Counted from the stretch's first letter, positions 1 to 39,151 are shown. The stretch is DNA of 64,000 bases from Alphaproteobacteria bacterium (GCA_963667785.2 CAXXMU010000005.1:352001-416000), one strand, 5' to 3'. Translations and numbers: made by a program. Notes: generated from the sequence alone by a model not told the origin.

Positions 1-1044
1 CAGTCCAGAGGGCCGGCAGGCCTGAAGCGGATGACGCTCGGGCGGGTCGGCACCGGGACCATCGAGGACCGCCGGCGCGAGGCATCCGTCGTCATCGACC
101 GCATTAAGCGGGGCGAGGACCCCAAGCCGTCGAAGCCGCCGCCACCGCCCACGGTCGCCGACCTGTCCGAACTCGTACTCAAGAACTACGTCGAGACGCG
201 CTGCAAGCCGAGCACGGCCAAAAACTACCGAGTGTCGATCCGGAACCACATCTTGCCCGCCCTGGAGACGAAGGCGCTCGAGGATGTCGGGTCCGAGGAC
301 CTCACGGCGCTCCACCACAAGCTGCGGGCGACACCGGCGGCGGCCAACCAGGCCATGTGAGTGCTGTCGAAGATGTTGTCGTTGGGCGAGAGCTGGGGGA
401 TGGTGCCGCCCGGCCGCAAACCGGGCCGGCATGTCCGCCATTACCGCGGGAAGCCCCGCGAGCGCTTCCTGACCCCGGAGGAGTTCCGGCGGCTGGGGAC
501 GGCGCTGAAGATGTTCGAAGCCAAGGGCTCGATGGTGCCCTCGGCGATCGCCGCGATCCGCCTGCTGATGCTCACCGGCTGCCGAACGGACGAGACCCTC
601 ACCCTGAAATGGGATGACGTCGACCGCACGGCGCGGGTCTAGCGCTTGCGCGATTCGAAGACCGGACCGCGCATGGTGCCGCTGACCGGGCCGGTGCTCA
701 AAGTGCTGGACGGCATCGAGCGGGCCAAAGGGGTTCCCTGGGTACTCCGGGGCACGAAGCCCGAGTCCCGGCTGGCCTGTCTTTCCTCGTATTGGCAGAG
801 GATCAGGAGAGAGACTGGCCTCCACGATGTGCGCGTCCACGACCTGCGACACTCGTTCGGCAGCCACGCAGTGCTACAAGGCGTCCCGCTACCGATTATC
901 TCCCGCCCGCTCGACCACAAGCGGTCGAGCATGACGCTGCGCTATGCCTATGTCGGCGACCGGGAGATCGAGGCAGCGGCGGAACGCATCGGAGCGGCTA
1001 TCGCGCGAGCATTGAATGGTAGCGCGACCAAATGCAATGCATAG
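1..1044 (+). pseudogene. Tyrosine recombinase/phage integrase, 5'-truncated by window edge, two in-frame stops
   Basis: ORFs 31-360, 361-642 and 646-1044 share one frame, separated by TGA (358-360) and TAG (640-642). Motifs LTGCRTDE, DSKTG, HDLRHS and TLRYA are present; the usual LGH box reads LDH. Confidence 0.9.
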
Positions 1045-1324
1045 TGCGCACCATCAATCGGCGGTTCTATCGTCAAGACCTCGCTTAGTAGGGCGGATTT
1101 AGTTGATCGATATTCTAGACAAGGAACTACTTCTAAGGCTATGGAAGATTGTTGATCAACCGTCGCATTTCTTGCAGGTCTCTCAGGAATTAGAGGTACC
1201 GTCTTTCATTTCCGTGGAACCCACACGAGTTCGTAGTCTTTTGTAACTATTTGGACTTGATCCCAAAAGCGCGATAGTACTACAAAGGGACTATATTTCT
1301 AACAGTCGAACCGGAGAAGGATCG

Positions 1325-1981
1325 ATGCTGTCGATCGCGGAGGAAATTGTACTCCTGGCACTGGACGATGAGACCGGCAAGCTGAACACGCGGCTGCCGG
1401 TTCACTCTCTGCGCAACGCGGTCAGCGGCGCCCTGCTAATGGACCTCGCCTTCGAGAACCGCATCGACACCGACCTGCACCGCCTCATCGTCATCGACGC
1501 GGCGCCGCTTGGCGCGCCGGTCCTGGATGACGTTCTCGCGCAGATCGCCAGCGACGAGGAGGAGCGGGAGACAGGCCATTGGGTTCACCTGATCGCCGGC
1601 GAGTACGAGACGCTGCAGCCGCAATTGCTGGGTCGTCTGGTTGCACGTGGAATCCTGTCCCAGCAAGAGGGCAGGCTGTCCTGGCTTATTGGCGTCCGTC
1701 GCTATCCGACCGTCGACGATCGTCCCCAGCGCGATGTGAAGCAGCGGATCATGGACACACTGCTGAGCGACGTGATCCCCGACCCACGCGACATCGCCAT
1801 CATCTGCCTGGCCGACGCCTGTGCCCTGTGGCGCGGCGTGATCGACGAGCGCGAGCTGGCCGATGCCAAGCCCAGAATCGAGCAGATCGTCAAGATGGAC
1901 CTGATTGGCCAGTCGGTCACCCGCACGATTCGCGAACTGCAGGACGCCACGCGCGGTGAAGAGGCCAAGTGGTTTCGCTGA
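1325..1981 (+). CDS. GPP34/GOLPH3-Vps74 family protein
   Basis: N-terminal LSIAEEIVLLALDDETG, GALLMDLAFENRI and L..RGIL...RRYP pattern; RBS-like GGAGAAGG upstream. Confidence 0.85.
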   Translation: MLSIAEEIVLLALDDETGKLNTRLPVHSLRNAVSGALLMDLAFENRIDTDLHRLIVIDAAPLGAPVLDDVLAQIASDEEERETGHWVHLIAGEYETLQPQLLGRLVARGILSQQEGRLSWLIGVRRYPTVDDRPQRDVKQRIMDTLLSDVIPDPRDIAIICLADACALWRGVIDERELADAKPRIEQIVKMDLIGQSVTRTIRELQDATRGEEAKWFR

Positions 1982-1993
1982 CCCACGTTCCGT

Positions 1994-2938
1994 TCAGACC
2001 ACCCATTGCAAGAGGAAGGCCACGGCGACGCTGACGGCGAGGCCGATGAAGCCCTTGAAGGCGTCCTTGACGACGATCATCGTGGTCTCGCGGTTCGACC
2101 GCAGGTGCGTGTCCAGCGCCACGGCGAACTCGCGGCCGGCCAGCAGGCCGAGGAACACCCAGGTGGTGCTCATGGGCACATTGCTCAGCTCCTTGAAGAA
2201 GAACAGGATGAGCCCGTAGATCAAGTCGATTATCGTCGCCGAGCGGATGTCCTGGGTGTTGATCTTGGTGGTGACGATGCGCTGGATCTCTCCGCCGCGC
2301 CGGTAGAAAATCCAGGCGTGCAGCACCACCATCACACCGATGACCATGATCAGCATTTCGGGCCCCAGCGAGCGGGGCAGATAGACCACGATATTGGCGA
2401 GGTCCTGGACCAGCCACTGGCTCCACAGGAACGCGGTGGAAAGCCATTGCAGCACCACCCAGTATGGTGCCGGTGGGCGGCTTGATGTCTCGATAAACCG
2501 GCGCTCGACGACGCGGGTTACGAACTTGTACACCAAGTAACCGACGACCGCGGCCACCGCATAGCCCAGGAGGGACTTGGTGAGCATGCTGGTCAGCCCG
2601 CGCGGGTTGAAGGCGGTCAGGACCAGAAACGTCGTGCTGACGGGGATACCGAGGCGCGTGAGACCGAGGATCACCAATGGCGGAATTATCATCCACCAGG
2701 CGTGGGTCTCGATCTCGGGGATTTTCGACAGCCGGCCGTAGGCCACATCGCCGTCATTCATGAAATAGCCGTATAGAAACACGGCAACGAGGATGCTGCT
2801 TGCGTATAGCCACAGAATCCACCAGGGCCGACGGGCGTTCGAGGCGAGAAACGTGCCCAGGGTTTGAATCGCGTCGTTGGCGACCACTGCATATGCCGCT
2901 AGCAAGAAGCCGACGTACATGTAGATTTCAGTGGTCAT
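1994..2938 (-). CDS. Multi-pass membrane protein, putative inorganic-ion permease (PiT-like repeated motifs)
   Basis: Hydrophobic 314 aa with ANDAIQTLGTF, PVSTTF, DLANI and PMSTTWVF motifs; start 23 bp after the znuB stop. Confidence 0.65.
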   Translation of the reverse strand: MTTEIYMYVGFLLAAYAVVANDAIQTLGTFLASNARRPWWILWLYASSILVAVFLYGYFMNDGDVAYGRLSKIPEIETHAWWMIIPPLVILGLTRLGIPVSTTFLVLTAFNPRGLTSMLTKSLLGYAVAAVVGYLVYKFVTRVVERRFIETSSRPPAPYWVVLQWLSTAFLWSQWLVQDLANIVVYLPRSLGPEMLIMVIGVMVVLHAWIFYRRGGEIQRIVTTKINTQDIRSATIIDLIYGLILFFFKELSNVPMSTTWVFLGLLAGREFAVALDTHLRSNRETTMIVVKDAFKGFIGLAVSVAVAFLLQWVV

Positions 2939-2961
2939 GGCAGGTTTGGCCGCGAACGCGG

Positions 2962-3801
2962 TTAACTGGCGGCTCTTCCCAGGAGTCGTCGCAAGGCGCG
3001 CCGGGAGTGGGCAGAGAACAGGGCGGCGCTGCCGAGGACGAGCGCGAAGAGAACCAGCGCCGCCACCACGATCGAGGGACCTGAGGGCGTGTCCCAAACG
3101 AGGGAGCCGTGAAGCCCGCCTGCCACCGACACTGCCCCGATCACGCTCGCAAACAACGCCATCTGCTCGGGCGTACGCGCCAGCCGTCGCGCCGTCGCCG
3201 CCGGAATGATCAGGAGCGACACGATAAGGAGCAGACCGATGATCTTCATGGCGATCGCCACGGCGAGCGCGATCAGTAGCGTGAAGGCGATGCGGACGAG
3301 GCCGACCCGCACGCCCTCGGCCCGCGCGAGTTCTTCATGGACGGTGATGGCCAGCAGAGGCCGCCAGATCAGCGCTGTCGCGATGAGGACGGCTCCGCCG
3401 CCGCCGTAGATCCAGATCAGATCGCGGCCGCTGACCGCCAGGATGTCGCCGAACAGGTAGCTCATCAGGTCCACCCGCACGCTCTCGAAGAAGCTGATCC
3501 CGACGAGGCCGACGGCGAGCGCGCCGTGCGCGAGGATGCCGAGCAGCGTATCCGTGGCCAGTCGCCGCTGCCGCTCCAACAGCAGAAACAGCAGGGCGAG
3601 CGCGACACAGGTGAGGATGATGCCAACATTGATGTCGATGCTCAGCGCAATACCGAGGACGACGCCGAGCAGCGCGCTGTGGGCGATCGAAGCTCCGAAG
3701 TAGGACATACGCCGCCACACGATGAAGCAGCCGAGCGGCCCGGTGGCGAGCGCTACGCCGATGCCGCCGGCAAGCGCGCGCGCGAAGAAGTCGTCGAACA
3801 C
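2962..3801 (-). CDS. znuB: Zn ABC transporter permease
   Basis: GCFIVWRRMSYFG, AHSALLG, DLMSYLFGDILA, LLIIPAATAR and DTPSGPSIV motifs. Confidence 0.9.
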   Translation of the reverse strand: MFDDFFARALAGGIGVALATGPLGCFIVWRRMSYFGASIAHSALLGVVLGIALSIDINVGIILTCVALALLFLLLERQRRLATDTLLGILAHGALAVGLVGISFFESVRVDLMSYLFGDILAVSGRDLIWIYGGGGAVLIATALIWRPLLAITVHEELARAEGVRVGLVRIAFTLLIALAVAIAMKIIGLLLIVSLLIIPAATARRLARTPEQMALFASVIGAVSVAGGLHGSLVWDTPSGPSIVVAALVLFALVLGSAALFSAHSRRALRRLLGRAAS

Positions 3802-3810
3802 CGCGTGTCC

Positions 3811-4620
3811 TTAGCCGGCCTCGCCTGACGGCGAACCGGTGCTGGAATGGCCACGGTCGGCCGGAACCACCGAAACGGGGAGGCCGTGAGTATGGTCGTG
3901 CTCGTGGGTGTAGACAGCGACCGCGGCAGCGGCATGGGGACCGAACAGAGAAATGTATTCGGGATGCCGGCTCACCGCCTCTGGCTCGCCGGCGCAGCAG
4001 ACATGCCCGTTGATGCAGACCACCCGGTCGGTCGCGCCCAGCACCAGGTGAAGGTCGTGGGAAATGATCAACACGCCGCATCCGCGGCGGTCGCGCAGCC
4101 GGGCGATCAATTGATGCATCGCCAGTTGACCCGCGAAATCCACCTGCTGGACCGGTTCGTCCAACACCAGCAGGTCGGAATTGCGCAGCAGGGCGCGGGC
4201 TAGCAGGACACGCCTGTATTCGCCGCCGGAGAGGCTGCTGAGCTGGCGCTCCATCACCTCCGCCACTCCTACCTCGTCGAGAGTCGCTTCGGCCTCGGCG
4301 CGGCCGCCGCGCCCCGCCATCGCGAGGAAACGCCGGACGGTGAGCGGCAGCAGTTCCTCCGGCGCGATGCGTTGGGGGACGTACCCCACGATCAAGCCGG
4401 GCGCGTGGCGGACAGACCCCGAGTCCGGCTTGATAAGTCCGAGCAAGGCGCGCACAGCGGTGGTCTTGCCTGCGCCGTTCGGGCCGATCAGGCTCAGCAC
4501 CTCCCGCCGGCGAACCTCGATCGAGACCCGGTCCAGCACCGTGCGATCCCCGTAATGCACGATGAGGTCCTGGCCTGAGGCGAGCAGCGGCTCGGAGGCA
4601 GGGTCAGGCCCCTGGTTCAT
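3811..4620 (-). CDS. znuC: Zn ABC transporter ATP-binding protein
   Basis: Walker A GPNGAGKT, LSGGE, LVLDEP, and ZnuC C-terminus CINGHVCCAGEP..HPEY..LFG..YTHEHDHTH. Confidence 0.9.
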   Translation of the reverse strand: MNQGPDPASEPLLASGQDLIVHYGDRTVLDRVSIEVRRREVLSLIGPNGAGKTTAVRALLGLIKPDSGSVRHAPGLIVGYVPQRIAPEELLPLTVRRFLAMAGRGGRAEAEATLDEVGVAEVMERQLSSLSGGEYRRVLLARALLRNSDLLVLDEPVQQVDFAGQLAMHQLIARLRDRRGCGVLIISHDLHLVLGATDRVVCINGHVCCAGEPEAVSRHPEYISLFGPHAAAAVAVYTHEHDHTHGLPVSVVPADRGHSSTGSPSGEAG

Positions 4621-4850
4621 GCGGTCGGCGGATGCATCGCGCCATGAGGGAAACTGCCTCACGGCCCGGTCATCGCCATGCGCGGTCGCCCTAGGGCCGG
4701 AACTCGATCCCCTTCGCCACATGCGCGGATGACGGGCGCGCCCTTGCGCGGCGTTGCTCCACATGCAATCGCCGACCTCCGCTCGAAGTGGCTTTCATCG
4801 CCGGTGCTTGCCATGTCGAGCGCTTCCCCCTCGCGACCGCCTGGATTCGA

Positions 4851-5339
4851 TCAGAAGAATACCATCAGCAGCATGATCCCGGCCGCTCCCCCCACGATGA
4901 AGGCGACGGTGCTGATAATGCCGGTTAGCGTTGCCCAGTCGGCCATCTGCCACGTTCGGGCTTCCACGTTGAACATGACGTCGGAGCGATCGCTGTCGCC
5001 GTCGACGAAGCGCTTCAGCGCGGATTCGGCGCCGTGGGCTTCCTTGATGGAGACGATGGTGACCAGGAACATGGTTAGCGCCGCCGTCAACGTGCCGATA
5101 CCGAACACCAGTATGGTCAACACTGCGAGCCAATGGAAAATGCCTTCAGTGTCGGTGCCCGTCGTGCTCATGAAGCCGATGATGAGGGCGGTGGCGCCGG
5201 CATTGCCGAACAGCAGGAAGCGCGTCGACTCGAGGATCATCCGGAACATGATGTTCCGGCGCATCGAGACGACCTTGTACCCTTCGCGGAGCCACTCCTC
5301 GCCGGTCTCCTCTAACGTGAAGTCTTCGAGTTTCTTCAC
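4851..5339 (-). CDS. Small membrane protein (about 3 TM), unknown function
   Basis: Hydrophobic segments; GTGA start/stop overlap with the upstream binding-protein gene. Confidence 0.7.
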   Translation of the reverse strand: MKKLEDFTLEETGEEWLREGYKVVSMRRNIMFRMILESTRFLLFGNAGATALIIGFMSTTGTDTEGIFHWLAVLTILVFGIGTLTAALTMFLVTIVSIKEAHGAESALKRFVDGDSDRSDVMFNVEARTWQMADWATLTGIISTVAFIVGGAAGIMLLMVFF

Positions 5340-6568
5340 TCGCCGGTCTCCCTCGTGCGCACGGAACCGACAATATGCTCTAACCGAACGTAGTCTGACC
5401 CGACGTTCGCGCCTTCATGGAAGACGATCACCCAGTCGTCGATGTGGACGGGGGTCGGCGCCAGCGCCGCTTCCAGGAATGCTTCCCGAGTGAGCTCCTC
5501 TGGCATTCGCTCCAACACGTCGATGAGGAAGCGACCCAGGATGTAGCCTCTGAGCGACAGCGAATCCGCCTCGCGCTCTCTGGCCGCCGGTTCGGCCTCC
5601 CTGTAGGCGTCGAGGGTTGCGCGGAAACGCTTCAGCAGCGCGACGTTGTTATCTCCGAGGTCCGGCGTAACTCTTGTCGCTAGCACCAGCGCATCCTGGT
5701 CATTTACCAACTCCCTCAAACGCTCCATGCTTATGAAGGACAGAGTCGCCATGACGTAGCCATGGCCGAGAGTCGTTGCCGTATTGATCAATTCGGCTAC
5801 TACCCCAGAAGTCGCTGCGAACATCACCACGTCCAAGTCGGCCTTGGCCATGACAAACGCGGCCCCATGAACGGCATGGGTATTCCGCGAATAGGAAGAC
5901 TTGGCGAGGATGGGCAGGTCGAGGGCGGTCAGTGCGTCATGGAAGTGCTTCAGAATCGAGCGGCCGAACGCGTCGTCCTGATAAATGATGCCAAACCGGC
6001 GAGCTCGCTCATGGTCGTACAAGTGGTTGACCAACAATTGTACTTCCTCTCGGTAGCCGGCGTGAAGATTGACCACGTTCGGGTTTCGCTCGGCGTCCCT
6101 CAGGAATTCCGCTCCGCTGAAAGGACCGACGAAGGGCATCATCGCCGAACGGAAAATGGGCAGCATGCGTTTGGCAGTCGGCGTTCCGACGCTGCCTATA
6201 ACCGCGAAAACCTCGTTTTCGACGACGAACTGTCTCGCGTTGGCTACAGCGGGATTCGGTTCGTAGCCGTCATCTCGCGTTACGAGCTTCAACTGTCTGC
6301 CGTGTACACCTCCTTCGGCGTTTCTTTCGTGAAAGGCGGCGAGTAGGCCGGCGCGATACTGACGGCCGCCGTGCTCGCCGGGACCCGAGAGGGGGGCGCT
6401 CTGACCGAAAGTGATGGCGTCTTCGGTCACTCCCGGCGCAGCTGCGGCAGGTGCGGCGCACCATGCTGCGCCGACGACGAGCGCGACGGCGAGCGCCGCG
6501 AGACACTTGCCCATCGGTGGCACCGTCCTCCCTGCCTTCATCCTCTCCTGCCGCCGAGTGCGATTCAC
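5336..6568 (-). CDS. Periplasmic ligand-binding protein, class I (LivJ/branched-chain amino acid-like fold)
   Basis: Signal peptide, FGQSAPLSGP, GGVHGRQLKLVTRDDGYEP, GSVGTPT and YQDDAFG; GTGA overlap with the hflK-like gene. Confidence 0.85.
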   Translation of the reverse strand: MNRTRRQERMKAGRTVPPMGKCLAALAVALVVGAAWCAAPAAAAPGVTEDAITFGQSAPLSGPGEHGGRQYRAGLLAAFHERNAEGGVHGRQLKLVTRDDGYEPNPAVANARQFVVENEVFAVIGSVGTPTAKRMLPIFRSAMMPFVGPFSGAEFLRDAERNPNVVNLHAGYREEVQLLVNHLYDHERARRFGIIYQDDAFGRSILKHFHDALTALDLPILAKSSYSRNTHAVHGAAFVMAKADLDVVMFAATSGVVAELINTATTLGHGYVMATLSFISMERLRELVNDQDALVLATRVTPDLGDNNVALLKRFRATLDAYREAEPAAREREADSLSLRGYILGRFLIDVLERMPEELTREAFLEAALAPTPVHIDDWVIVFHEGANVGSDYVRLEHIVGSVRTRETGE

Positions 6569-7956
6569 TGCGCGGCCTCCACGCCCGTCTCCGCCGGTGC
6601 CTCAGCGTCAGCCTTCTTTTTCTTCTCTTCCGTTCCGGTCTTCGACACGTCCTGAGCGCTTCCGCTCTCGGCCCCTTCGTCGACGACGGTCCGGTCCACC
6701 ATGGGAGGCTCGTTCGCTTCCGCCGCCGCGGCGACGCTCGTCAGGGGAGCATGGCGATGGTCGAAGATCGAAAGATCATCGAAGATCAACGAACGCGGAT
6801 TGGCGATCGTCATGTGGTCGCGTTCGCTCAGGCGAGTGTGAAGCCGTCCGTCGAGGAGGAAACGATCCGCTTCAACAGCTTCCAGACCGTGCGCGCCCGA
6901 CTCGCTCGCAGTCGTGATCGACGTCCGCGCGCCGGCCAGATTCTCCGTAGGAACGGAGGCCGTCGTCGTCGGCGCCGGCCCGCGCCCGATGCCGGGATGT
7001 ATCCCTTCGATCATGTTGACGTCGATCACCGACGTGTCGCCGGGGTTCACGGCCGAGAGTGTGGCATCGCGGAAGATGCTACGCATGCGCTGCCAGTATC
7101 GCGTGATTGTCACGGAGGCCGGCTCGCTTCGATAGGCCGCCAGCAGATCCAGGAATGCCCCCGCGCTGCTCTCTGCTTGAATCCGCCGTTCCCTTGCCCT
7201 GGCCGTCGCATCCATCAATACCGCCTCGGCTTGGCCCCGGCTTCGGGCCAGGAGTCTCTCCCTCTCGCGATTGGCGTGGCTGACGGCCTGAACGCTCTCG
7301 GCGATGGCGTCGCTCACATCGCGGAAGGCGGCAACGGTCTCGTCGATGGGGCGAAGATCGACGATGTTGAGCGCCAGCAGCTCGATGCCGATGTCGTTGG
7401 CATCGAGGTAGTCCAGGGTGTCCGTGTGCAGCTCGGCCTGAATCGCGTCACGATTGTTGGTGAAGATGAGATCGATGAAGTGCCGGCCCATGATCTCGAT
7501 CAGGCGCTCTCGCACGATGACCCGCAACACCGTTTCGGGATCGGTGGTCGCGTACAGGTAGTTCCTCAGATGGCCGATCCTGTATTGCAGGGCCACGTTC
7601 ACTTCGAACAGGTTCGTGTCTCCCGAGAGGATGGAGAAGCTGACGCTGCCGTCGCCGCCCTGCGAGGCCACGTTGTCACGCGTGATGCGCTTGACCTTGC
7701 GCACGTAAGCCCTTTCGACGACTGGAACCGCATAATGAATTCCGGGTGGGATCTCCTCGTCCACCACCTTGCCGAAGCGTGTCAGGACCCCCTGTTCCTC
7801 CTTCTTCACGACATAGATGCCGGTCGCCAGGACCGCGATGATCGTGATGGCGGCCAGCGCCACCAGGATCAGCACCCTGTGATCCCGCACGTAGTCGAAG
7901 GTCGCGTAGATGACGCGCGTGCTCGGTGGGAGACTCTCGGTGGTGGGTTCCGACAT
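6565..7956 (-). CDS. HflK-like SPFH/Band 7 protein with ~150 aa C-terminal extension
   Basis: N-terminal TM, EQGVLTRFGK..PGIHYAVP, GDTNL..V..ALQYRI, AFRDV..A, ARGQAE and TRYWQRM. Confidence 0.85.
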   Translation of the reverse strand: MSEPTTESLPPSTRVIYATFDYVRDHRVLILVALAAITIIAVLATGIYVVKKEEQGVLTRFGKVVDEEIPPGIHYAVPVVERAYVRKVKRITRDNVASQGGDGSVSFSILSGDTNLFEVNVALQYRIGHLRNYLYATTDPETVLRVIVRERLIEIMGRHFIDLIFTNNRDAIQAELHTDTLDYLDANDIGIELLALNIVDLRPIDETVAAFRDVSDAIAESVQAVSHANRERERLLARSRGQAEAVLMDATARARERRIQAESSAGAFLDLLAAYRSEPASVTITRYWQRMRSIFRDATLSAVNPGDTSVIDVNMIEGIHPGIGRGPAPTTTASVPTENLAGARTSITTASESGAHGLEAVEADRFLLDGRLHTRLSERDHMTIANPRSLIFDDLSIFDHRHAPLTSVAAAAEANEPPMVDRTVVDEGAESGSAQDVSKTGTEEKKKKADAEAPAETGVEAAQ

Positions 7957-7968
7957 GATCCCGTCTCG

Positions 7969-8871
7969 CTACTGCGATTCCGGCGCCGGTATTTCGTTGC
8001 TGTCGAGATACTTGAAGAGTTCGTTGTCGGCCGGCAGCATCAGCGTGGTGTTCTGGTCGATGATCGAATCGTAGCTGTCGAGCGCGCGGATGAACTTGTA
8101 GAAGTCCGGGTCCTCGCGATACGCGGTGGCGAGAGTCGCCATGGCGTCGGCTTCGGCCCGGCCGAGGATGGTGGTCGCCTCGGCGTGGGCGTGCGCCATG
8201 ATTTTCTCGTGCTCGTTGATGGCGTGCGCCTCGATCCGCATGGCCTGCTCTTCGCCTTCGCTGCGATAGCGGGCGGCGATGCGGGCACGCTCGGAGATCA
8301 TCCGCTGGATGATGCTGGGCCGGTTTGCCGCCGGCAGCGTGTACTCGACGAGGCCCGCGCGGATGACGTCGATACCATAGTCCGCGGCGGCAATGGGCTT
8401 GACCTGGTCGAGTATCTCCCGGGACGCGATGGTGAGGTCTTCGTTCGCCAGTCCGAGGCTCACGAAGGCGTCGCGGGACTTGTTGCTCACCACGATGCCG
8501 ACACTCGCCCGATACAGATCGCCCAGCCGCTCGATAGCCCTGGCCTCGGTTCGGACGGATTCCACGTAGCGAATGGGGTCGGTAATGCGCCACAGCAGGT
8601 AGCCGTCCACCAGAACGTTCTTCTGGTCCTCGGTTATGAACTCCTGCGTGAGGCCGGTCAGCGGGCGCACGCGCCTGTCCACCTTGTACACCCGTGAGAT
8701 GGGCCACGGGTACTTGGCGTGCAGGCCGGGCTCCTTCGGCGGCTCAGTAATCTTGCCGAAGTGGGTGAGAACGCCCTGTTCCGATTCGTCGATGACGTAG
8801 AGACAGTCGTAGACGACGATGGCCACGAACAGGATTGCGATGGCTGCCGCTACTCGCTTCTTCGTTATCAT
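7969..8871 (-). CDS. HflC-like SPFH protein
   Basis: N-terminal TM, QGVLTHFGK..PGLHAKYP, TEDQKNVLVD..WRITDP, RMISER..A..YRSEG and DPDFYKFIRALDSY (HflC signature). Confidence 0.9.
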   Translation of the reverse strand: MITKKRVAAAIAILFVAIVVYDCLYVIDESEQGVLTHFGKITEPPKEPGLHAKYPWPISRVYKVDRRVRPLTGLTQEFITEDQKNVLVDGYLLWRITDPIRYVESVRTEARAIERLGDLYRASVGIVVSNKSRDAFVSLGLANEDLTIASREILDQVKPIAAADYGIDVIRAGLVEYTLPAANRPSIIQRMISERARIAARYRSEGEEQAMRIEAHAINEHEKIMAHAHAEATTILGRAEADAMATLATAYREDPDFYKFIRALDSYDSIIDQNTTLMLPADNELFKYLDSNEIPAPESQ

Positions 8872-8929
8872 GGCTGGCTTCCCATCGTTCCGTTCGCGGA
8901 GGCGCTCCGACGCGTGATCGGCGTCCGTC

Positions 8930-11209
8930 TCAGTGATGAGGGGGCTCGGGGGCGCCGTTCCACGATTTCCACAGCGCAACCCGGTTCAGCGTGTCGTCGC
9001 TCGGGACAATGATCTTGCTCTTGTTAGCGAGGGAGGATTCCAGCTTCTCGCGCCACAGCATGGTCTCGAGCACCTCGGGCGCGGTCCCGACGGCTTCGGC
9101 GATCACGCGGATAGCGTCGCTCTCCGCCGCCGAGATGACCGTTCTGCGGGTGGCGTCGCCCTTGGCCTGTTCGAGCTCGTACGCCGCGTTGCCGTGCGCC
9201 CTGGGTATCAGCGAAACCAGGAACCGCTGCGCGTTGACGATGATGCGCTCCCTGTCCTCCTGCGAGCTCGATACCTCGCGGAAGGCGTTCATGGCGGCAT
9301 CGATCGGTGCAACCGAGAGCAGGCTAACTTTGACGATGTCGACGGCGTCGAGCACCTCGCTGTCGCCCTCGGGGATGCGGCCCCGGAATACGTCCTCGAT
9401 GCGATCCTGCAGCGCCACGCGCTCCACGTTGAGCAGGTCGTCCAAGGTCCGAGCGGAGACGAATTTGCGCAGCTCGCGGCGTATGTTGTCGCCGATCGCC
9501 TGCTGCGGGCTGTCGACGCGATAGTGATAGGTGTAGGGGTCGCTGACGCGGTACTGCATGCTCACCGAGAGCGACATCAGGTTGAGATCGCCGGTGAGGT
9601 ACTCCTGCGTCTCACCGCTGGCGATGGACTTGACCTCGCGCACGGGCCACTTGTCGGCCCTGGCAAACGGTGCGGGCGGCAGATAGTGCAGACCGGGTTG
9701 CAGATCCTTCCACACCACCGCGCCGAACAGGCGTCCGTAGCCGACCTCGCCGGGGCGAACGACGGTCAGGCCGCTCAGCACGAATACGGCGATGGCGATC
9801 AGCCAGACGCCGATTCCGGCAGACCGGCGCGGGTCGATGGCGCCGATGAGTGGCGCATCACCCGTCATCCGGAGCCACCACCGCTTGGCGGGGGCGAACC
9901 AGGGGCCGACGTTGGAGACCAGGTCCTGGTATCCGCTCTTCAGCGCGCCCGCGCGGAAGCGCCAGACGATGAGCGCGGCAAGCCCCAGCGCAGATGCCCA
10001 CTGCACCACCATTATTGCCGGGGAGTCGGACGCATCCAGGTTCACGGCGAGGGACACCCCGAGGGAGAGCAGGGCCAGATCGATGATGATGCCCAGCACC
10101 ACCGTCACCGCGACCACCGAGCCCACGTAGATCGACGCGAAGCGCAGGCCGAATTGGCTGATGATGATCGCGATCGTGCCGGTGTTAGTGGCCGGGCCGG
10201 TCATCAGGAAGATGGCCGCCGCGCCCGGGCTGAACCCCTTGGCGATCAGGGCTGCGGCGATGGGCGTGCTGGCCGAGGCGCAGATGTAGAGCGGCACGCC
10301 GACCAAGACCATGATGGGATAGGAGATCCAACGGGCGTGCTCGTACTGCATCAGGTCGCTCGGGATGACCATGAAGAGCACACCGCCAAGCGCAAGGCCC
10401 ACCAGCAGGGCGAAGAGAATGTCGTCGGCGACCTCGACGAAGCCGTAGCGAAGGATGTGTTTGCAGACGGTGGTGAACGTGAGGTCACTCTGCTCTTGAT
10501 CCGCTTTTTCTTCTTCTTGGGGGGAGGGTGCGTCCCGAGACGGCGAGAGTATCTCGCGGTAGAACTCCGGCTTGATCCAGGTCATGGACCGGACGCGCCC
10601 GATACGTTCGACCGCACGGCGCAGCCAGGCGTCGAAGAACGCCCTGAATTCTCTCGGGCGGACGTAGCAGTCGTCCTCTCCCCAGCGGAGAGGCTTGTGA
10701 CCGTGGTCGTGATCGTGACCATGGGCGCAGCTGTCGTCGTGCTCGTGCTCGTGGTCGTGATCGGCAGCGGAGGGGGCCGTCCGGGCCTCGTCACGGCCGC
10801 GGATCAACCCGATGCAGAAGATGCCGGCGACAACGCCCGTAATGAAGCTCATGACCGGCCGCACGAGGGCCGGAATCGGGCCGAAGAACGCGTTGGTGAC
10901 GAGAATCGAGTCCGCGCCCGTCTCCGGCGCAGTAATCAGGAACGACATGCACGACGACCGCGAGGCTCCCTTGCGCCGCATCTCCGCCACGACCGGCACC
11001 ACGGAACAGCTGCAAAGCGGCATCGGCACGCCGATGGCAGCACTGGTACTGACGGATTTCAGGCTGTCGTGACGCAGCCACCTTTGGGTGGCCTGTCTTG
11101 AGATGAACACGTGGATCAGCCCGGCCAGGAACAGGCCGAGCAGGAGCATCGGCGACAGCAGCAGGAAGGACGACCAGAAGAAGTCCAGGAATCCGACGAT
11201 CTGTGTCAC
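8930..11209 (-). CDS. ArsP_1/SO_0444-type metal permease with His-rich loop, fused to C-terminal HflK-like SPFH domain
   Basis: GVPMPLCSCSVVP, FLITAPETGADS, PLYICASASTP and GPATN motifs; DHDHEHEHDDSCAHGHDHDHGH loop; C-terminal PGLHY..P, YLTGDLNL..QYRVSDP, AFREVSSSQED and PRAHG. Confidence 0.85.
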   Translation of the reverse strand: MTQIVGFLDFFWSSFLLLSPMLLLGLFLAGLIHVFISRQATQRWLRHDSLKSVSTSAAIGVPMPLCSCSVVPVVAEMRRKGASRSSCMSFLITAPETGADSILVTNAFFGPIPALVRPVMSFITGVVAGIFCIGLIRGRDEARTAPSAADHDHEHEHDDSCAHGHDHDHGHKPLRWGEDDCYVRPREFRAFFDAWLRRAVERIGRVRSMTWIKPEFYREILSPSRDAPSPQEEEKADQEQSDLTFTTVCKHILRYGFVEVADDILFALLVGLALGGVLFMVIPSDLMQYEHARWISYPIMVLVGVPLYICASASTPIAAALIAKGFSPGAAAIFLMTGPATNTGTIAIIISQFGLRFASIYVGSVVAVTVVLGIIIDLALLSLGVSLAVNLDASDSPAIMVVQWASALGLAALIVWRFRAGALKSGYQDLVSNVGPWFAPAKRWWLRMTGDAPLIGAIDPRRSAGIGVWLIAIAVFVLSGLTVVRPGEVGYGRLFGAVVWKDLQPGLHYLPPAPFARADKWPVREVKSIASGETQEYLTGDLNLMSLSVSMQYRVSDPYTYHYRVDSPQQAIGDNIRRELRKFVSARTLDDLLNVERVALQDRIEDVFRGRIPEGDSEVLDAVDIVKVSLLSVAPIDAAMNAFREVSSSQEDRERIIVNAQRFLVSLIPRAHGNAAYELEQAKGDATRRTVISAAESDAIRVIAEAVGTAPEVLETMLWREKLESSLANKSKIIVPSDDTLNRVALWKSWNGAPEPPHH

Positions 11210-11607
11210 GGCACTGGCTTGCTTGGCAGTGGAATGACGAGCCTGAATCGCGACGGGTTTGCGAACCGCGCCACGATCCTGCCTCGGCGGGCCGGGCCAT
11301 ACCGGGGGATGCGGGGCGATCTCGGCATGGTCATGGCGGTCCGGCCGCTCGCATGCCGGTCAGCACGCGGCCCCGTCTTCGGCCAAATCGGCGTCGCCGG
11401 GAACGTCTCGAAGTGGGTGCGTGGCAGGTCTTCATCGCCCATCCCGCACACTGTCTGGGAGCACCTTCGCCGTCGGGCAAAGGAACGTTCGCCTTGAACG
11501 ACAGTATCAAGCGCGAGAGAGTCTGCCCAAATTCTTTTCTTTGACACGATCCAACAAAAACTTATTCGCGACGGGGGTTGCCCACTGCTGAAATCTTCAA
11601 TCGAATA

Positions 11608-11631
11608 CTTGTTATCTTATATCGTTACATG
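11608..11631 (-). promoter_or_regulatory. Candidate Zur (Fur-family) box upstream of the permease-SPFH operon
   Basis: TGTTATCTTATATCG (11610-11624) resembles the Zur core TGTTATAnTATAACA; AT-rich island in GC-rich DNA ~400 bp upstream of the start. Confidence 0.5.
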
Positions 11632-11649
11632 TGCGCGCGACGACGCGAT

Positions 11650-12143
11650 CCGGGAGATTCTCGAGACGGTGCGGGCGACGGCGGCGCGCATAAACGCGCT
11701 CCAGGAGGCGTCAGGCCCAGAACACGAGATGGCAGAAGCGCTGGCTCGCGAGACGGCGGCGATGACGTAGGCCGCCGAGGATGTGCGCGGTGCGCTCGCC
11801 AAGGCGGCAGAGCTCGCCGGTAAGCAGGACGGACAGGCGACTGCCGGAGCACAGGCGCTGGCCAAGAGCGTCGCCGCGCTGAAGGCCCAGGGCGAGGCGC
11901 TCGACAAGCGCATCCGCGCGACGGGCACGCAGGCGCAGGCGAACGCCGGGCAGGCGGAGGCCGCCGCCTAGGGCATTGCCGAGATGAAGGAGGCAGCGGT
12001 GGCGCCCATGTCTGACAGATCTGGCCATAGGGTCTGCGTCGTTCGTTTTCTTCGTGCTGGGCGCCGTGCTGCAGCGGGAGACCGACGTCGTTTCCTTCGG
12101 CGACCCCCGCCACGAGTGGAGCGAGTATGTCGAGGAGCACTAC
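11650..12143 (+). pseudogene. Degraded coiled-coil/membrane-anchored protein relic, possibly plasmid- or mobile-element-derived
   Basis: Ala-rich helical frame REILETVRAT...AMT*AAEDVRG...EAAA*GIAEMK with TAG at 11768 and 11969, then a hydrophobic FVFFVLGAVLQRE fragment. Confidence 0.4.
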
Positions 12144-12878
12144 TGTTAGTCGATCAGCTTCGCTTTGAGAAAGGCAGCCACAAGATTGCGACGCTCACCA
12201 ACAATGGAGGTGGTCGCATTCGACTTGAGGCGGATCCGGAGGGCGCGCTCGCCCAACTGGACGGGCTAGGTGCGGGGGATTGGGAAGTCGCGACGCGGCT
12301 CGTGTTCAACAGTTGGCTCTCTTCTGCCGGTCCCGACGCGAGCATTTGAAGCTGGTAGCCGTGCGCCGCTAGCCAGCGTCAGAGCGGCCATGCGCATAGT
12401 CCAGAAGTCGTCGTCACGCGCAGTTCAATTTCGACCTGGAACTTCATCCCAATTTGGTTAGTTTCTCGAATCCAGCTTGAGCCCCCAATGGTTCGCGGAG
12501 TCGCTCTCGGTGAATCCGGTCCAGGACCGGCACCTTCTCGAGTGACGGAGCTGATGCTCTCAACACCAAGTGCTCAGGATGGTGCCTCTTGGCTCGCCAC
12601 CCACCGCCGAACTCCCATCCCCAAGCCGCGAGGCCTCCAGCCGCCCCGGGGGCTGGTCAGCAACGCGTATCGTGTCCAACAGTTGGATTGAGCGTTACGC
12701 TCATCTCGATCTTTCACGAACGCTTTCCGATTCAGACCGATAGCCGTGCGGCGAAGCCTTGAGCAGCTCGAACAGAAGGGTGGGCTCGAGATGGGAGCGA
12801 TCAACTGATCACACCTCGCCGCGCGGCAAAGGGCGCTTGAGAACGCCGATCTGGGGTAACAGTACGAAGAGCGAGACA

Positions 12879-13227
12879 ATGCCAAGACCACCGGAGGGGA
12901 TGTTGCCGACGAGCAGTAGTCCGTGGACGACGATGGCGGAGAAGCAGTGGAGACAGACGCGGCCGATCATGGTGAAGCGCTTGGAGGAGGTCGGACAACT
13001 GAGCCGGGCGCTGAGGATGGCGGTGGACGCGACATCGGAGCAGATGTTCGAGGTGACGGCGAGGGGCGTGGAGCCGACAGCGGCGAGGTAGGCCGCGATG
13101 AGCGAGAACCTTCTGCTCCCGGACGAGAGGGAGGTTCCGGATCTGCCGGCGGATCTCGTTCCCCTCGCGTACCAAGAAACAACTATTCCGTCGGTGAAGC
13201 AAACGATTTTGGAAGAGATCACTTGAC
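12879..13227 (+). pseudogene. Small mobile-element protein relic (TnpV-like/phage-like) with internal TAG
   Basis: MPRPPEG..AEKQWRQTRPIMVKRLEEVGQL..TAAR*AAMSENLLLPDE..; the frame continues past TAG 13089-13091. Confidence 0.35.
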
Positions 13228-13928
13228 CTAAAGAGGTGCAAAACGGAGACGAAGATTTTACCAACGATGTGTTGGCAGAATAATCCATCGATAGGTGAAG
13301 CCTATGAGCTCGCTGGCCGAGCTAACAGACGCGGCGTAGGAGATTAGGGGGTTTTCAGCGGATGGCACAAAAGACTTGGCTCTGACTGCTCCGCCCGAAC
13401 CCCCTACGCATGAGACCGGTGAAGGAACGCCCTTTGCCAATGGCCATCTCTCCCCGCCGATCAGGCTCCGACGGGGAGGTCAATCAATCCCTGCATGCGT
13501 TCACGAGGCGGAGGGTTAGAGATTTTCCTCACCACTCGCAGGACACCACACCACGCGCCCACGGCCTGATCGGCCAGCCCTTTTTGGACCCAATCCGTAC
13601 CGGATGCACAGAGGACTCCTAGAGGTCGGAGGACCCGTCGGATGGGACCCGTAGGCCCCCCTACCCCAGCGATTTCCTGTCTGCAGGGGCAGAGTGGTTT
13701 CTTCGATCCCATGTGTGTGCTTCAAGCAGCCCGAACGCACAGCCTTGGTGCCCACCACCCCACCATGCGCACGGTTGAGTGCGCACCCCAAGACTCGGAA
13801 ACTCGTTGCGGTAGGAGGTGCAGCGCTGGCCATTGAGCTCCGGCGTTGCCGGCGAACCACCCCCTGCCAGCCCCTATGCTAAGACGATCAGCGCTTGGCG
13901 GGATGGATGACGGGGAGGGAAAGATGTC

Positions 13929-14258
13929 ATGCGGCCGACGTCACGCGACGAGGCGGATTTCGACTGCGATGGCGCGGTACTGATGAAGAACGTTGTGCCG
14001 GCCAGATGGCTACGCGTGCTGGAGCAGGCGACCGAACGCGACATCGCGGAGTTGGGCGACGTGCTCGCTTTCCACGCGATGACCGTTCGCAGCGCCGGCG
14101 GCAACCTCACGACGGATGTGTGCAGGCACGGCTATGCGGTGCGCTGTTGCGGCGAGAGATGCACCGTCTTTGCCGGCCTTGGTCCGAACCGTGACCTGCG
14201 CAACCCGGCTCTCACCGACGGCGACACGCTCGATAGCGCGCAATACCCTGTTGTCTGA
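13929..14258 (+). pseudogene. Phytanoyl-CoA dioxygenase (PhyH) family relic with internal deletion
   Basis: N-terminal F..DGAVLMKNVV..W joins directly to C-terminal GDVLAFHAMTV..AGGN..R.GYAVR..G; the central HxD region is absent. Confidence 0.6.
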
Positions 14259-14677
14259 CCCTGACGCTGGCAGCGCGATCAGCGACTGTCGGCTGTGGAG
14301 AGAAAGCCCATGATCCAAAGGCTATCTCGTCTCCAGCTTGTTCATCCGGTTCGACGTCGAGGAGGTCATCCGGTTGGAGACGGACTTCGGAATCGCGGTG
14401 TTCGCGATCATCCTCTCGGTGGGCGTCGCCGACGCCATCCTACATCGACTCGACACAGGCTCGGGCTGGACTTCGTTCGACGCCGACGACAATGGGCGTT
14501 CAGGTAGCCTCGGTCGTGCTGGAGGTGGTGAAACCGAGAAGGGTTCCTTCTCGTTGGTTCGCAATCTGAGATGGACGGGATTGTCCCGAGCAGTTCCGGG
14601 GCGTATCGCGGAATCGCGTTGCGAATAGGGTTGTAAATAGGGAGCGTGGGGCGTCGTGGTCAGAAAATAACACTCTG

Positions 14678-14690
14678 AAACAATAACTTA
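14678..14690 (+). promoter_or_regulatory. Candidate IHF site next to the tRNA att junction
   Basis: AAACAATAACTTA vs consensus WATCAANNNNTTR (one mismatch), 11 bp from the tRNA 3' end. Confidence 0.35.
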
Positions 14691-14701
14691 TCTAATAAGT
14701 G

Positions 14702-14791
14702 TGGCGGAGGGGGTGGGATTCGAACCCACGGTACGCTCGCGCGTACAACGGTTTTCGAGACCGCCCCGTTCGACCACTCCGGCACCCCTCC
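14702..14791 (-). tRNA. tRNA-Ser(CGA)
   Basis: GGAGGGGTG...GCGGTCT-CGA-AAACCGT, long variable arm, GTTCGAATCC and 3' GCCA; 90 nt. Confidence 0.97.
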
Positions 14792-14821
14792 GCGGCCTGG
14801 CGCGCGTCGCGCGGCCCCTAT

Positions 14822-15694
14822 CTACGCCTGCGCGCCGCCCTCGGCAACCGCGGCTGCCGCGACGCTGCGCTCGTAGCCGGCGAAATCCTCTGTGCCGAGC
14901 ACGTGGCGTTCCATCCAGGCGGTGAACGCCTCGCGCGATCGCGCGATCGCGTCCCACGCCTCGTAGAACGTGTTGTCGCGGCGGTAGTAGCCGAGCGCAT
15001 AGGAGGGCCGGGCGCCGCCGGGCTCCTCGCAGACCGCGCTCACCACCCAATGCGGCAGGATGACGGCATTCGCCGGCGGCGCGAACTCGTCCACGATCTC
15101 CTCCACCGTGACGATCACCCGCCTGGACGCAAGCGCCACCTCCTTCTGCACGCCGGAGATGCCCCACAGCATCACGTTGCCCCTGGCATCCGCCTGCTGG
15201 GCGTGGAGCACCGCGACGTCGGGGCGGACGGCGGGCGAGGCCGCGAGTCGCTCGCCGGTGAAGGGGCATTCGATGAACTTGATGAGCGGGTTGTGCGCCG
15301 GCAGGTCGGAGCCGGCATAGCCCCGGATCACGCCGAAGGGGAGCCCGCTCGCGCCCGCGACATAGGCGTTGGCGAGGTCGGCATGGCTGCGCTCCTCGAT
15401 CTCCATGGGCCTGGGCCAGCCGTTCTCCACCGCGTCGCGGAAGCGGTGCAGCGAGCCCACCCCCGGATTGCCGCCCCAGGAGAAGACCAGGCGCCCGACG
15501 CAGCCCATGCCGATGAGCTGGTCGTAGATGAGGTCCGGCGTCATGCGCACCGCGGTGAGGTTGCGAAAGCCCGCGCGAATCACCGCGTGGCCCGCGGCAT
15601 GGGGGATCAGGTGGGTGAACCCCTCCATGGCGACGGTATCTCCCTCCTCGATGAGCGAGGACACCGCGTCGGCGAGCGGGACGATCTCGGCCAT
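14822..15694 (-). CDS. CoA-transferase subunit A (CatI/GctA type, 3-oxoadipate CoA-transferase-like)
   Basis: EGFTHLIPHAAGH, RMTPDLIYDQLIG, GNPGVGSLHR and HAQQAD..GN motifs. Confidence 0.85.
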   Translation of the reverse strand: MAEIVPLADAVSSLIEEGDTVAMEGFTHLIPHAAGHAVIRAGFRNLTAVRMTPDLIYDQLIGMGCVGRLVFSWGGNPGVGSLHRFRDAVENGWPRPMEIEERSHADLANAYVAGASGLPFGVIRGYAGSDLPAHNPLIKFIECPFTGERLAASPAVRPDVAVLHAQQADARGNVMLWGISGVQKEVALASRRVIVTVEEIVDEFAPPANAVILPHWVVSAVCEEPGGARPSYALGYYRRDNTFYEAWDAIARSREAFTAWMERHVLGTEDFAGYERSVAAAAVAEGGAQA

Positions 15695-15754
15695 GCGCCG
15701 GGCGCGCGGTGACGCGGGCGTTGCGCTGCGGGGGAGGAAGCGGGCGCCTGGCGG

Positions 15755-16747
15755 CTAGAAGCGCACCGGGACGACCGGCGCCTCGCCCTTGGCGATCATC
15801 TCCGGGATCGCCGGCGAGGCGTTCTCCCACACCAGCAGCATCGAGCGCTTGGGCGAGAAGCCCTGGTGGCGGATGTCAGCCGGCATGCAGGCGACATCGC
15901 CGGCGCGCATGGTCACCACCGCGCGCGGGTCGCCCGATTCCTTGTCCTTGACGTTCCAGACGATCTCGTCCGAGAGCTGGATGAACCACTCGACGCGGTC
16001 GTTGCCGTGCTCCACCGGCAGGATGAACTCCTCGGAGGTGGGGCAGAAGAGGCTGTCCTTGAGCACGGAGCAGACGGACGGGTTCCAGGTCACGTCCGAG
16101 CGCGAGAGGTAGGCGAAGAGGTTGAAGGACTGCACCTCGTCCTCGAAGCCGGGCTCGATCTCGACCTCCGGCTCGTCCTGGTCGACGTCGGCGAACATGC
16201 GGTTGACCGGGTAGCCGCTTTCGTCGGTGCGGAGCGGGGCGTCGCCCGGCAGGCCCACCATGCGCTTCGCCGTCACCCGCACGCGGCCGAGGGCCTCGGG
16301 ATTGCGGCCGCTCTTGCGACCGAAAGGCTGCGCCGTCTCCTGCGGCGCCGTGAACGGGTCGTAACCGGTGTTGGTCCAGTCGTCGAGCATCGCCTGGAAG
16401 GTCGCCCTCAGGTCGTCGGAATCGATCGTCTCCCGATAGTCGCGGCCGTTGTCGCGGTAGGCGTCGTTGTAGCGCCCGATATAGAGCTCGACCCGGCCGT
16501 AGAGGTTGGTGGTGCCGAACACGTCGTCGAAGTTCAGCGTGCCGTAGAAGAAGTTCCACGCCACCTCGCGCACCAGCGCCCGCAGAAAGGCGTCCACCGG
16601 CATGAGATGCGAGCCTTCGGGCCAGGTGACGTAGGCGAAATACTCGTCGCGGCGGAAGCCGAAACCGCCGATCTGGAAACTGCGGTAGCCCGTGTAGTTG
16701 TCGGGATCGGAGGCCGCGTAGGCTGCCTGTGCGGTCTGTGCGGACAT
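15755..16747 (-). CDS. Hydroquinone 1,2-dioxygenase large subunit (HapD/HqdB type)
   Basis: RRDEYF, AWNFFYG, LSRSDVTWNPSV, EEFILPVEHGNDRVEWF and PADIRHQG.S.KRSMLLVWEN. Confidence 0.85.
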   Translation of the reverse strand: MSAQTAQAAYAASDPDNYTGYRSFQIGGFGFRRDEYFAYVTWPEGSHLMPVDAFLRALVREVAWNFFYGTLNFDDVFGTTNLYGRVELYIGRYNDAYRDNGRDYRETIDSDDLRATFQAMLDDWTNTGYDPFTAPQETAQPFGRKSGRNPEALGRVRVTAKRMVGLPGDAPLRTDESGYPVNRMFADVDQDEPEVEIEPGFEDEVQSFNLFAYLSRSDVTWNPSVCSVLKDSLFCPTSEEFILPVEHGNDRVEWFIQLSDEIVWNVKDKESGDPRAVVTMRAGDVACMPADIRHQGFSPKRSMLLVWENASPAIPEMIAKGEAPVVPVRF

Positions 16748-38975: not shown

Positions 38976-39101
38976 CGCCGCCCCTCCCGTGGCTGCCAAG
39001 GCCGGCAGCCTAGCCCGGAATTCTCACCAAAGTCATGGCCCGCGCGCCCCTGGCGCGACGTCCGCCATTCCGAAACTCCCTGCGTCTCGCTCACGACCGT
39101 C

Positions 39102-39130: not shown

Positions 39131-39151
39131 GAGCGAGAGAGGAGAGAACCC

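Follow-up and report, generated by a model that had tools for sequence, protein, structure and literature searches.

A permease–SPFH fusion heads a conserved five-gene cassette in a zinc-related gene neighbourhood

A 64,000-nucleotide stretch of an alphaproteobacterial genome (GCA_963667785.2, CAXXMU010000005.1:352001-416000), analysed here at its full length and called the window, carries a five-gene cassette whose first gene joins a permease of the SO_0444/ArsP_1 family to an HflK-type SPFH module within one polypeptide. This permease–SPFH fusion is real and conserved. Two further SPFH genes accompany it, and genes for zinc uptake continue on the same strand. We propose that the cassette encodes a dedicated inner-membrane SPFH assembly around a zinc-family permease, probably controlled by Zur, and we put the probability of this reading at roughly 0.55.

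Results

All five genes lie on the minus strand. The fusion gene (8930-11209, 759 aa) is followed by genes for an HflC-type SPFH protein with an N-terminal transmembrane (TM) anchor (7969-8871; 300 aa when read from ATG, the longest open reading frame (ORF) starting with TTG at 8979), a second HflK-type SPFH protein with a His-rich C-terminal extension (6565-7956, 463 aa), a secreted protein with a type-I periplasmic-binding-protein fold (5336-6568, 410 aa) and a membrane protein of 162 aa (4851-5339). The first two gaps measure 58 nt (8872-8929) and 12 nt (7957-7968); the third and fourth genes, and again the fourth and fifth, overlap by the four nucleotides GTGA. The genes of the cassette are translationally coupled. 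A preliminary description of the locus, made from the sequence, had reported the same co-oriented genes, gaps and overlaps, and the ORF calls agree with it exactly. While its five genes stand, its stop at position 4851 missed the znuC- and znuB-like genes that continue on the same strand, and with them the zinc-uptake context.

The fusion protein comprises a permease (residues ~1-417), a basic linker (418-461, with 6 Lys and Arg in 44 residues), one TM helix (~462-484) and an HflK-type SPFH module (~485-759). Hidden Markov model scans against Pfam and NCBIfam confirm this two-part composition, which had been proposed earlier: ArsP_1 matches residues 5-377 (154.5 bits) and Band_7 residues 483-657 (53.5 bits), and the model for SO_0444 family Cu/Zn efflux transporters, NF033936, is passed with 325.6 bits over a cut-off of 300, residues 11-415 aligning to model positions 1-348 of 351. 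Residues 501-740 match the hflK model TIGR01933 at 123.2 bits, under its cut-off of 159.4. A sequence search of the PDB matched residues 461-736 to HflK residues 73-344 in 7vhp (E = 1.1e-16) and returned no solved relative for the permease part. In an AlphaFold2 model of the fusion, which has a mean predicted local distance difference test (pLDDT) score of 66, the SPFH part reaches 80-90, and Foldseek matches that part to HflK/C chains with E = 2e-12. The CSC and ICAS motifs and the His/Asp/Glu-rich loop picked out in the preliminary description are all present, the loop at ~146-172. Across an alignment of 117 fusion proteins C66-S67-C68, I309-C310-A311-S312 and several histidines of the loop are invariant.

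The fusion is not an assembly artefact. At least 115 of the best 120 homologues (of 771 at E ≤ 0.001) have PF01145 as well as PF03773 among their listed domains, and five have PF03773 only; where names are given, NCBI places the homologues in the SO_0444 family and JGI calls them 'YraQ ... / regulator of protease activity HflC'. Contigs from four public sequencing runs (three studies; two labelled sponge metagenome) cover 30 of 30 bins of window positions 4700-11700 at 90% likeness or more, and a contig from one of them (X5) spans 9645-10210 without a gap, bridging the permease/SPFH junction at 9742-9961. The best-covering run may be the window's own source, and the homologues are the main support for the fusion.

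Band_7 (PF01145) is matched in the first three proteins of the cassette at 53.5, 72.6 and 62.1 bits, all above the cut-off of 23.6, bearing out the earlier count of three SPFH modules in the operon. The genome holds five Band_7 genes, namely these three and an adjacent canonical hflK/hflC pair on contig C1 that scores well over the respective cut-offs (260.5 bits for hflK, 223.6 bits for hflC), so that the cassette does not contain the only hflK and hflC of the genome. The sole full-length ftsH is on contig C2. Among the scanned window ORFs no ftsH, hflX or purA family was matched, in agreement with the remark that none of these genes stands alongside the cassette. The HflC-type protein passes the hflC model TIGR01932 (169.9 bits, cut-off 134.4) and scores 143.7 bits against the enterobacterial model NF008259 (cut-off 427), and the second HflK-type protein stays under the TIGR01933 cut-off with 136.9 bits against 159.4. 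By BLASTP, the fused module is closest to canonical HflK (25% identity, 82-87 bits), with the product of the third gene next (24-27%), the HflC-type protein to canonical HflC (33%, 149 bits) and the second HflK-type protein to canonical HflK (28-29%). Profile scores and nearest relatives together indicate that the locus encodes two K-type modules and one C-type module and, by these sequence comparisons, the cassette is a second, specialised SPFH set beside the canonical pair.

All three SPFH proteins keep the C-terminal helical region and match HflK/C over nearly their full length. The second HflK-type protein extends ~160 residues past its SPFH/coiled-coil part, and the conserved His-rich portion of this extension (~350-402) contains residues that are invariant in 29 HflK-type sequences: H356, D364, G370, H373, E378, R379, S389, L390, F392, D393, S396, F398 and H400. 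The extension could be a periplasmic metal site. A complex prediction that paired this tail (residues 320-420) with the binding-protein-fold protein (46-410) scored 0.00 and, having no controls, gives no verdict either way.

The 410-aa protein passes the Peripla_BP_6 (PF13458) gathering score with 156.7 bits and begins with a signal-like hydrophobic segment (15-45) followed by AAAAP. Its nearest solved structure is 4kv7 (E = 2.8e-38), an uncharacterised Leu/Ile/Val-type protein, and against NCBIfam it reached no equivalog cut-off, the LivJ and UrtA models being far under theirs. The 162-aa protein matches no family in Pfam or NCBIfam, and an Atlas search returned only clusters without a name. 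It is kept in 31 loci, where its charged N-terminal region is highly conserved and H69, W70, E100, H102 and E105 are conserved as well. A pairing of the SPFH-NfeD kind (QmcA-YbbJ type) was considered and rejected, because this protein matches no Pfam or NCBIfam family.

To place the cassette among other genomes, one genome per species was scanned, which gave 75 loci, all from metagenome-assembled genomes (MAGs), and the gene content of these loci was read by tblastn with the window proteins. The same gene order recurs across several phyla: 30 of the 75 loci hold all five genes in that order, and the HflC-type gene stands directly after the fusion in 30. A further 40 have a related permease (55-68% identity) without an SPFH module, and five are incomplete, being truncated or running into the end of their contig or locus (L027, L039, L055, L060, L070). 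One more full cassette (G306) was found among 401 sampled Pseudomonadales genomes searched with the HflK-type protein; the remaining matches there resemble canonical HflK (26-32% identity). MAGs with full cassettes are labelled Alphaproteobacteria (Defluviicoccus, Rhodospirillales, Paracoccaceae), Gammaproteobacteria, Latescibacterota, Acidobacteriota (Bryobacterales, Terriglobia) and Spirochaetia. The HflC-type and second HflK-type genes follow the fusion gene in every full cassette. Some loci hold only parts of the cassette: the permease, an HflK-like gene fragment and the 162-aa gene (L029, 10001-12093), the permease and part of the 162-aa gene (L063, 10001-11535), or a truncated SPFH module (L070, 10001-11872), and in L071 (14747-18582), one of the 30 loci with all five genes, an insertion of ~2.7 kb interrupts the binding-protein gene.

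Permeases of this kind also occur in other settings. The genome of the window has two more ArsP_1-family genes without SPFH (G000:C1:341567-342388 and G000:C6:550056-550925), which are very distant relatives of the fused one and sit on long branches of the tree. Five Latescibacterota loci (L034, L038, L041, L042, L045) carry two unfused permease copies in opposite orientation, ~5 kb apart.

The genes surrounding the cassette concern zinc. Only 86 nt past the 162-aa gene, a gene for a ZnuC-like ABC ATPase (3811-4764, minus strand; its true start is possibly further downstream) and then one for a ZnuB-like ABC-3 permease (2962-3801, minus strand) continue on the same strand. The first falls just under NF007090 (276 bits, cut-off 306) and meets the Pfam ABC_tran threshold; the second falls just under NF007089 (261.4 bits, cut-off 284) and meets that of PF00950 (ABC-3) with 243.9 bits. 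The single ZnuA of the genome is on contig C6, apart from both ABC-3 genes. Uptake-type genes occur in the flanks of 29 of the 31 full cassettes, and the flanks of L065 and L079 have no ZnuABC, ZIP, ZrgA or TonB-dependent receptor gene. ZnuA, ZnuB or ZnuC flanks 16 of the 31, all of them in the alphaproteobacterial clade. The order is znuA-cassette-znuC-znuB on a single strand in L010, L012, L016 and L018, and znuC-znuB-znuA-cassette in L024 and L062; in L024 only ~15 nt separate the fusion gene from the znuA match. A ZIP gene comes directly after the 162-aa gene in 11 of the 31, two of which also have ZrgA, and a TonB-dependent receptor, whose best match is ZnuD at a score far under the cut-off, flanks two. 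A ZIP gene likewise comes directly after the unfused sister permease in 31 of 40 loci. The link to metal made in the preliminary description is therefore strongly backed by neighbouring genes, although the zinc-uptake genes themselves had been overlooked.

Two further kinds of gene were seen in this neighbourhood. Close to the cassette is a gene of the GPP34 (Golgi phosphoprotein 3) family (window 1325-1981, plus strand); such a gene is within 10 kb of the permease gene in L010, L012, L013, L016, L018, L019, L021, L022, L025 and L048, and in L048 it comes directly after an unfused permease. Directly after znuB is a membrane-protein ORF (1994-2960, minus strand) with only a weak match to PHO4, a phosphate transporter family (E = 3.9e-4), and an unusually low G+C content at third codon positions (GC3) of 0.41; a full PHO4-family gene stands beside ZnuA in L021.

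Upstream of the fusion gene, a predicted Zur-box-like site, CGATATAAGATAACA (11610-11624, minus strand), agrees with 10 of the 12 specified bases of TGTTATNNNATAACA, which we take to be the Zur core consensus and used for scoring sites. The site sits in the sole AT-rich patch of this upstream region, ~400-415 nt before the start codon, and is one of only five in the 4.09-Mb genome with at most two mismatches. Within 700 nt upstream of the fusion gene, five core sites occur in four of 32 loci, a density of 0.227 per kb against 0.0048 elsewhere in the loci, and composition-preserving block shuffles yielded 0.56 sites on average and never more than 3, against the 5 observed. The four loci are alphaproteobacterial and include the window; the sites in L019 and L066 are near-perfect. 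Other loci have different AT-rich palindromes upstream, which are not assignable. These predicted sites make Zur control of the alphaproteobacterial loci plausible. An Rfam scan of window 1-16000 gave a tRNA and sub-threshold chance matches only, with no upstream riboswitch, and in a promoter and terminator scan the promoter predictions were no better than in shuffles. Two upstream ORFs (11206-11547 and 11625-12140) were rejected as genes, having no family and no conservation in related loci.

The fusion of an SPFH module to a metal pump is not confined to this permease family. The fused module was searched against 1.84 billion cluster representatives, and of the best 150 matches all 59 of at least 508 aa, and none of the 91 shorter ones, were scanned with Pfam. 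Among those 59, 37 carry ArsP_1, 18 Cation_efflux (CDF), three a P-type ATPase and one Band_7 only, and in every such fusion the transporter precedes the SPFH module. Three CDF::SPFH loci from metagenomes (L128, L130, L135) were inspected; in all three, the fusion gene is followed by a further pair of Band_7 genes whose ends overlap or abut. As L128 and L130 are closely related, their flanking genes count as one observation. In both, a gene for a ~660-aa peptidyl-prolyl isomerase (PPIase; rotamase-domain, PpiD/SurA-like) comes directly before the CDF::SPFH gene and its two SPFH partners (L128 3078-8575, L130 3954-9487); L128 also has a P-type ATPase downstream, and L130 a second SurA-like gene. 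The PPIase genes hint at a link to the folding of exported proteins.

Base composition differs along the window. GC3 is 0.72-0.86 in the cassette genes and ~0.9 or higher in most genes further along, and window 1-14 kb has a G+C content of 58-68%, the genome one of 69.7%. Low GC3 and low G+C make the region compatible with acquisition by transfer. A tRNA gene (14705-14791, minus strand, 57.3 bits) borders the lower-G+C stretch (window 1-14000) that holds the cassette; no integrase was seen. Elsewhere in the window are a gene for a Spondin_N-domain protein (22667-23464, minus strand, 138 bits), a domain better known from animal extracellular-matrix proteins, and a RelB-antitoxin-like gene (39035-39406, plus strand).

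Discussion

How such an assembly might be built can be sketched from HflK/HflC, which in E. coli alternate 12:12 in a ring. The C-type subunit of the cassette would alternate with either K-type subunit in a mixed ring or dome, and each fused subunit would tether one permease to the patch of membrane inside. With both K-type paralogues competing for one set of ring positions, the unfused one, as a spacer, could set the number of permeases per ring. The SPFH modules would face the periplasm, judging by the orientation of HflK/C (given in the part of PMC2636767 available to us), the basic linker before the anchor helix and the co-encoded secreted protein. The His-rich tail of the HflK-type protein, the binding-protein-fold protein and the small membrane protein would then be accessories on the periplasmic side. 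The gene context suggests that the module is co-expressed with zinc-uptake genes; with probable Zur control, this would mean that it is made when zinc is scarce. In the interpretation offered by the preliminary description, the fusion, the synteny, the non-housekeeping nature of this hflK/hflC set and the metal link have been borne out, and the cage, the enclosed permease and the direction of transport rest on HflK/C homology and inference.

Several observations weigh against the proposed zinc-family assembly. Permease pLDDT is poor (~40-80), leaving the topology unmodelled, and Kyte-Doolittle segmentation did not resolve the number of permease helices; the HflK-type protein has a mean pLDDT of 49, with the tail and its His cluster unmodelled. 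The Zur core site is absent from most upstream regions, being found in only 4 of 32, and that of the window is only a 10/12 match ~400 nt from the gene. All scanned carriers are MAGs, and their taxon labels may contain binning errors. A CusA/CzcA-family RND pump occurs in the flanks of 10 of the 31 full loci, mostly directly upstream; the pump is over the TIGR00914 cut-off in both loci tested and lies directly upstream on the same strand in Latescibacterota loci. Owing to these pumps, we describe the context as zinc homeostasis generally, not uptake alone. The SPFH trio of a Pseudomonadales look-alike (G376, described below), from which the figures come rather than from the named P. aeruginosa sequences, is 22-27% identical to that of the window, no closer than canonical HflK/C. 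Finally, fused and unfused permeases interleave in the permease-domain tree, which requires a minimum of 10 changes, at least five of them forced by well-supported branches (L039, cut by a contig end and counted there as unfused, is to be disregarded), and the permease can persist without the SPFH block, as in the decayed L029, L063 and L070. Interleaving and decay together indicate that the SPFH block has likely been lost repeatedly and that the permease is evidently workable alone.

The direction of transport bears on what the assembly would do. Outward movement, from the cytoplasm to a sheltered periplasmic space, falls a little short of even odds; the exporter name of the family and the CDF and P-type ATPase sister fusions favour it over inward movement, which we regard as unlikely. 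Another or unknown direction is somewhat less likely still. The Znu, ZIP and Zur context, in turn, argues for a role under zinc shortage. Exporter relatives and a shortage context both fit export into a sheltered periplasm; they also fit a simple homeostasis island.

A bolder version of the proposed assembly, which we consider improbable as it stands, is a sealed periplasmic 'metalation chamber'. Under scarcity, zinc imported by ZnuABC or ZIP would be re-exported beneath the dome by the tethered permease and loaded there into selected exported proteins. In a space of a few thousand cubic nanometres, single ions would amount to a high local concentration, and the clients, whether newly made secreted zinc enzymes or the binding-protein-fold protein of the cassette, would be served with no metal lost to the open periplasm. 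In the sister systems, CDF or P-type pumps would play the exporter part. If true, the chamber would parallel, in bacteria, the way zinc is loaded in the secretory pathway of eukaryotes as well as TerC-dependent exoenzyme metalation, and would show how Gram-negative cells allot scarce metal to the periplasm.

The alternatives that survive best differ from the proposed assembly in what the permease is for. It might be a plain detoxification efflux pump, merely stabilised or clustered by its SPFH partners beside CzcCBA-type pumps and with no link to zinc shortage. The passed NF033936 model belongs to a family called efflux transporters (Haft preprint, in its available text), the RND pumps stand in 10 of 31 full loci and directly upstream in Latescibacterota, and the sister fusions use CDF and P-type pumps. 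We still hold this reading to be improbable, given uptake-type neighbours in 29 of 31 full loci, six alphaproteobacterial loci in which the cassette is placed inside znuABC or immediately behind it on the same strand, the Zur-like sites upstream and the induction of an analogous three-SPFH operon of P. aeruginosa (see below) by depletion, not excess.

A role as an aid to zinc uptake would explain the neighbours directly: the permease would import, and the dome, the His-rich tails and the binding-protein-fold protein would gather zinc for it and for ZIP or ZnuBC. Neighbouring ZnuABC, ZIP, ZrgA or TonB-dependent receptor genes, the ZIP gene that follows the unfused permease in 31 of 40 loci and the conserved histidines of the HflK-type tail all suit this role, as does HmtA, described as an importer in the accessible text of the P. 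aeruginosa work. Against it, the family members with an assigned function are exporters, and a closed dome would hinder the access of periplasmic zinc. CDF proteins, the partners in 18 of the 59 fusions, are exporters as well. Uptake is, on balance, a doubtful account of the cassette, with a small share of the probability.

Still less probable is an in-cis regulator without a closed cage, in which the SPFH module, working in small oligomers as stomatin does on channels, would tune the gating of the permease to which it is fused or the lipids around it. The stomatin-aquaporin-1 complex 9zd2 is among the structural matches and stomatin modulates transport in papers, as far as their available text goes. 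This account is at odds with the always co-inherited pair of extra K- and C-type paralogues, a requirement of an HflK/C-like hetero-oligomeric ring, and with the C-terminal helical region matching HflK/C that all three SPFH proteins retain. FtsH-linked turnover, in which the extra HflK/C set recruits the single FtsH and metal status decides whether the tethered permease is degraded or protected, draws on HflK/C as known FtsH partners and on an HflC-type gene over the hflC cut-off, but is very improbable with ftsH on another contig, a canonical hflKC of its own in the genome and both K-type modules under the hflK cut-off.

The roles of bacterial SPFH assemblies other than holding FtsH are poorly understood, and the phenotypes of most knock-outs are faint (PMC13086221, from the portion of the article available). 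In the cassette a peptide bond fixes the presumed client, a transporter whose activity can be measured, which makes it a natural system for asking how a scaffold affects the transporters that it holds. The three-subunit design recurs with three unrelated metal-pump families.

Comparison with known systems

The component families are known, and the fused architecture is already in databases under the name of the permease family. A literature search, with most subscription journals and supplements outside it, found no description of the permease-SPFH fusion, the five-gene cassette or its CDF and P-type counterparts.

E. coli HflK/HflC-FtsH (7vhp, 7vhq, 7wi3, 9cz2, 9paw) shares with the cassette a K-type and a C-type SPFH protein with N-terminal TM anchors. 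The cassette differs in having three SPFH modules instead of two, one of them joined to a polytopic permease, in its place away from hfq-hflX and ftsH, in the scores of both K-type modules under the hflK cut-off, and in its client, presumably a transporter and not a protease.

The SO_0444/ArsP family (NF033936, PF03773) is represented in the cassette by a passing score and the CSC motif, the most conserved motif of the family according to the Haft preprint, which in its available text also calls the family efflux transporters. The fusion exceeds this family by ~340 C-terminal residues, a long His-rich insertion and obligatory partner genes, and, whatever the family name, the context of the cassette speaks for zinc uptake no less than for efflux.

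The SPFH modules of the CDF::SPFH and P-type ATPase::SPFH fusions are among the nearest relatives of the fused module of the window, and the CDF::SPFH loci share with the cassette a tight trailing pair of SPFH genes. They differ in the family of the transporter and, in L128, L130 and L135, in having no binding-protein or 162-aa gene.

Human stomatin with aquaporin-1 and urea transporter-B (9zd2; PMC12407830, as its available text describes it) offers a likeness in the form of an SPFH assembly with transport proteins as clients. There, unlike in the cassette, a homo-oligomeric scaffold on the eukaryotic cytoplasmic face associates with its clients non-covalently.

Among studied systems, the closest to the cassette is the PA2439-PA2437 operon of P. 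aeruginosa, with three SPFH genes in one operon beside a metal transporter; at this hmtA locus the transporter is a separate P-type ATPase. In the accessible portions of the reports, a znuA mutant shows 9-14 fold higher expression of PA2437 (HflC family), PA2438 (HflC) and PA2439 (HflK family) (PMC4542158), a second transcriptome places them in the Zur regulon (PMC9431628), and their protein levels rise on zinc depletion (PMC11761036); Zur binds the PA2439 promoter, and the metal ATPase gene hmtA, whose product is described as an importer, is in the same locus. A 2026 study treats the three as PaFlo5-7 and reports faint phenotypes only under the conditions that it tested, with a patchy, transfer-like distribution; in the text of it available to us, 'zinc' appears once (PMC13086221). 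The earlier statement that no characterised example of such an architecture was known needs amending to this extent: the operon has been published as a Zur-regulated three-SPFH operon at the hmtA locus, its expression characterised and its function not.

A PA2439-type layout occurs in a Pseudomonadales genome (L125, G376:C1:5938000-5954000, 2126-11343, minus strand). Its first protein (659 aa) has a ~340-residue polytopic N-terminal domain without a Pfam family, followed by Band_7; further genes encode a 329-aa HflC-like protein with a His-rich N-terminus, a 344-aa Band_7 protein and a 628-aa P-type ATPase. Its low identity to the window trio marks the Pseudomonadales trio as an analogue, not an orthologue. 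After the P-type ATPase come MbnB/TglH/ChrH-family and DUF2063 genes, which as a pair hint at a metal-binding product made from a peptide. The cassette also supplies a concrete hypothesis for what the zinc-starvation-induced SPFH operon of P. aeruginosa does.

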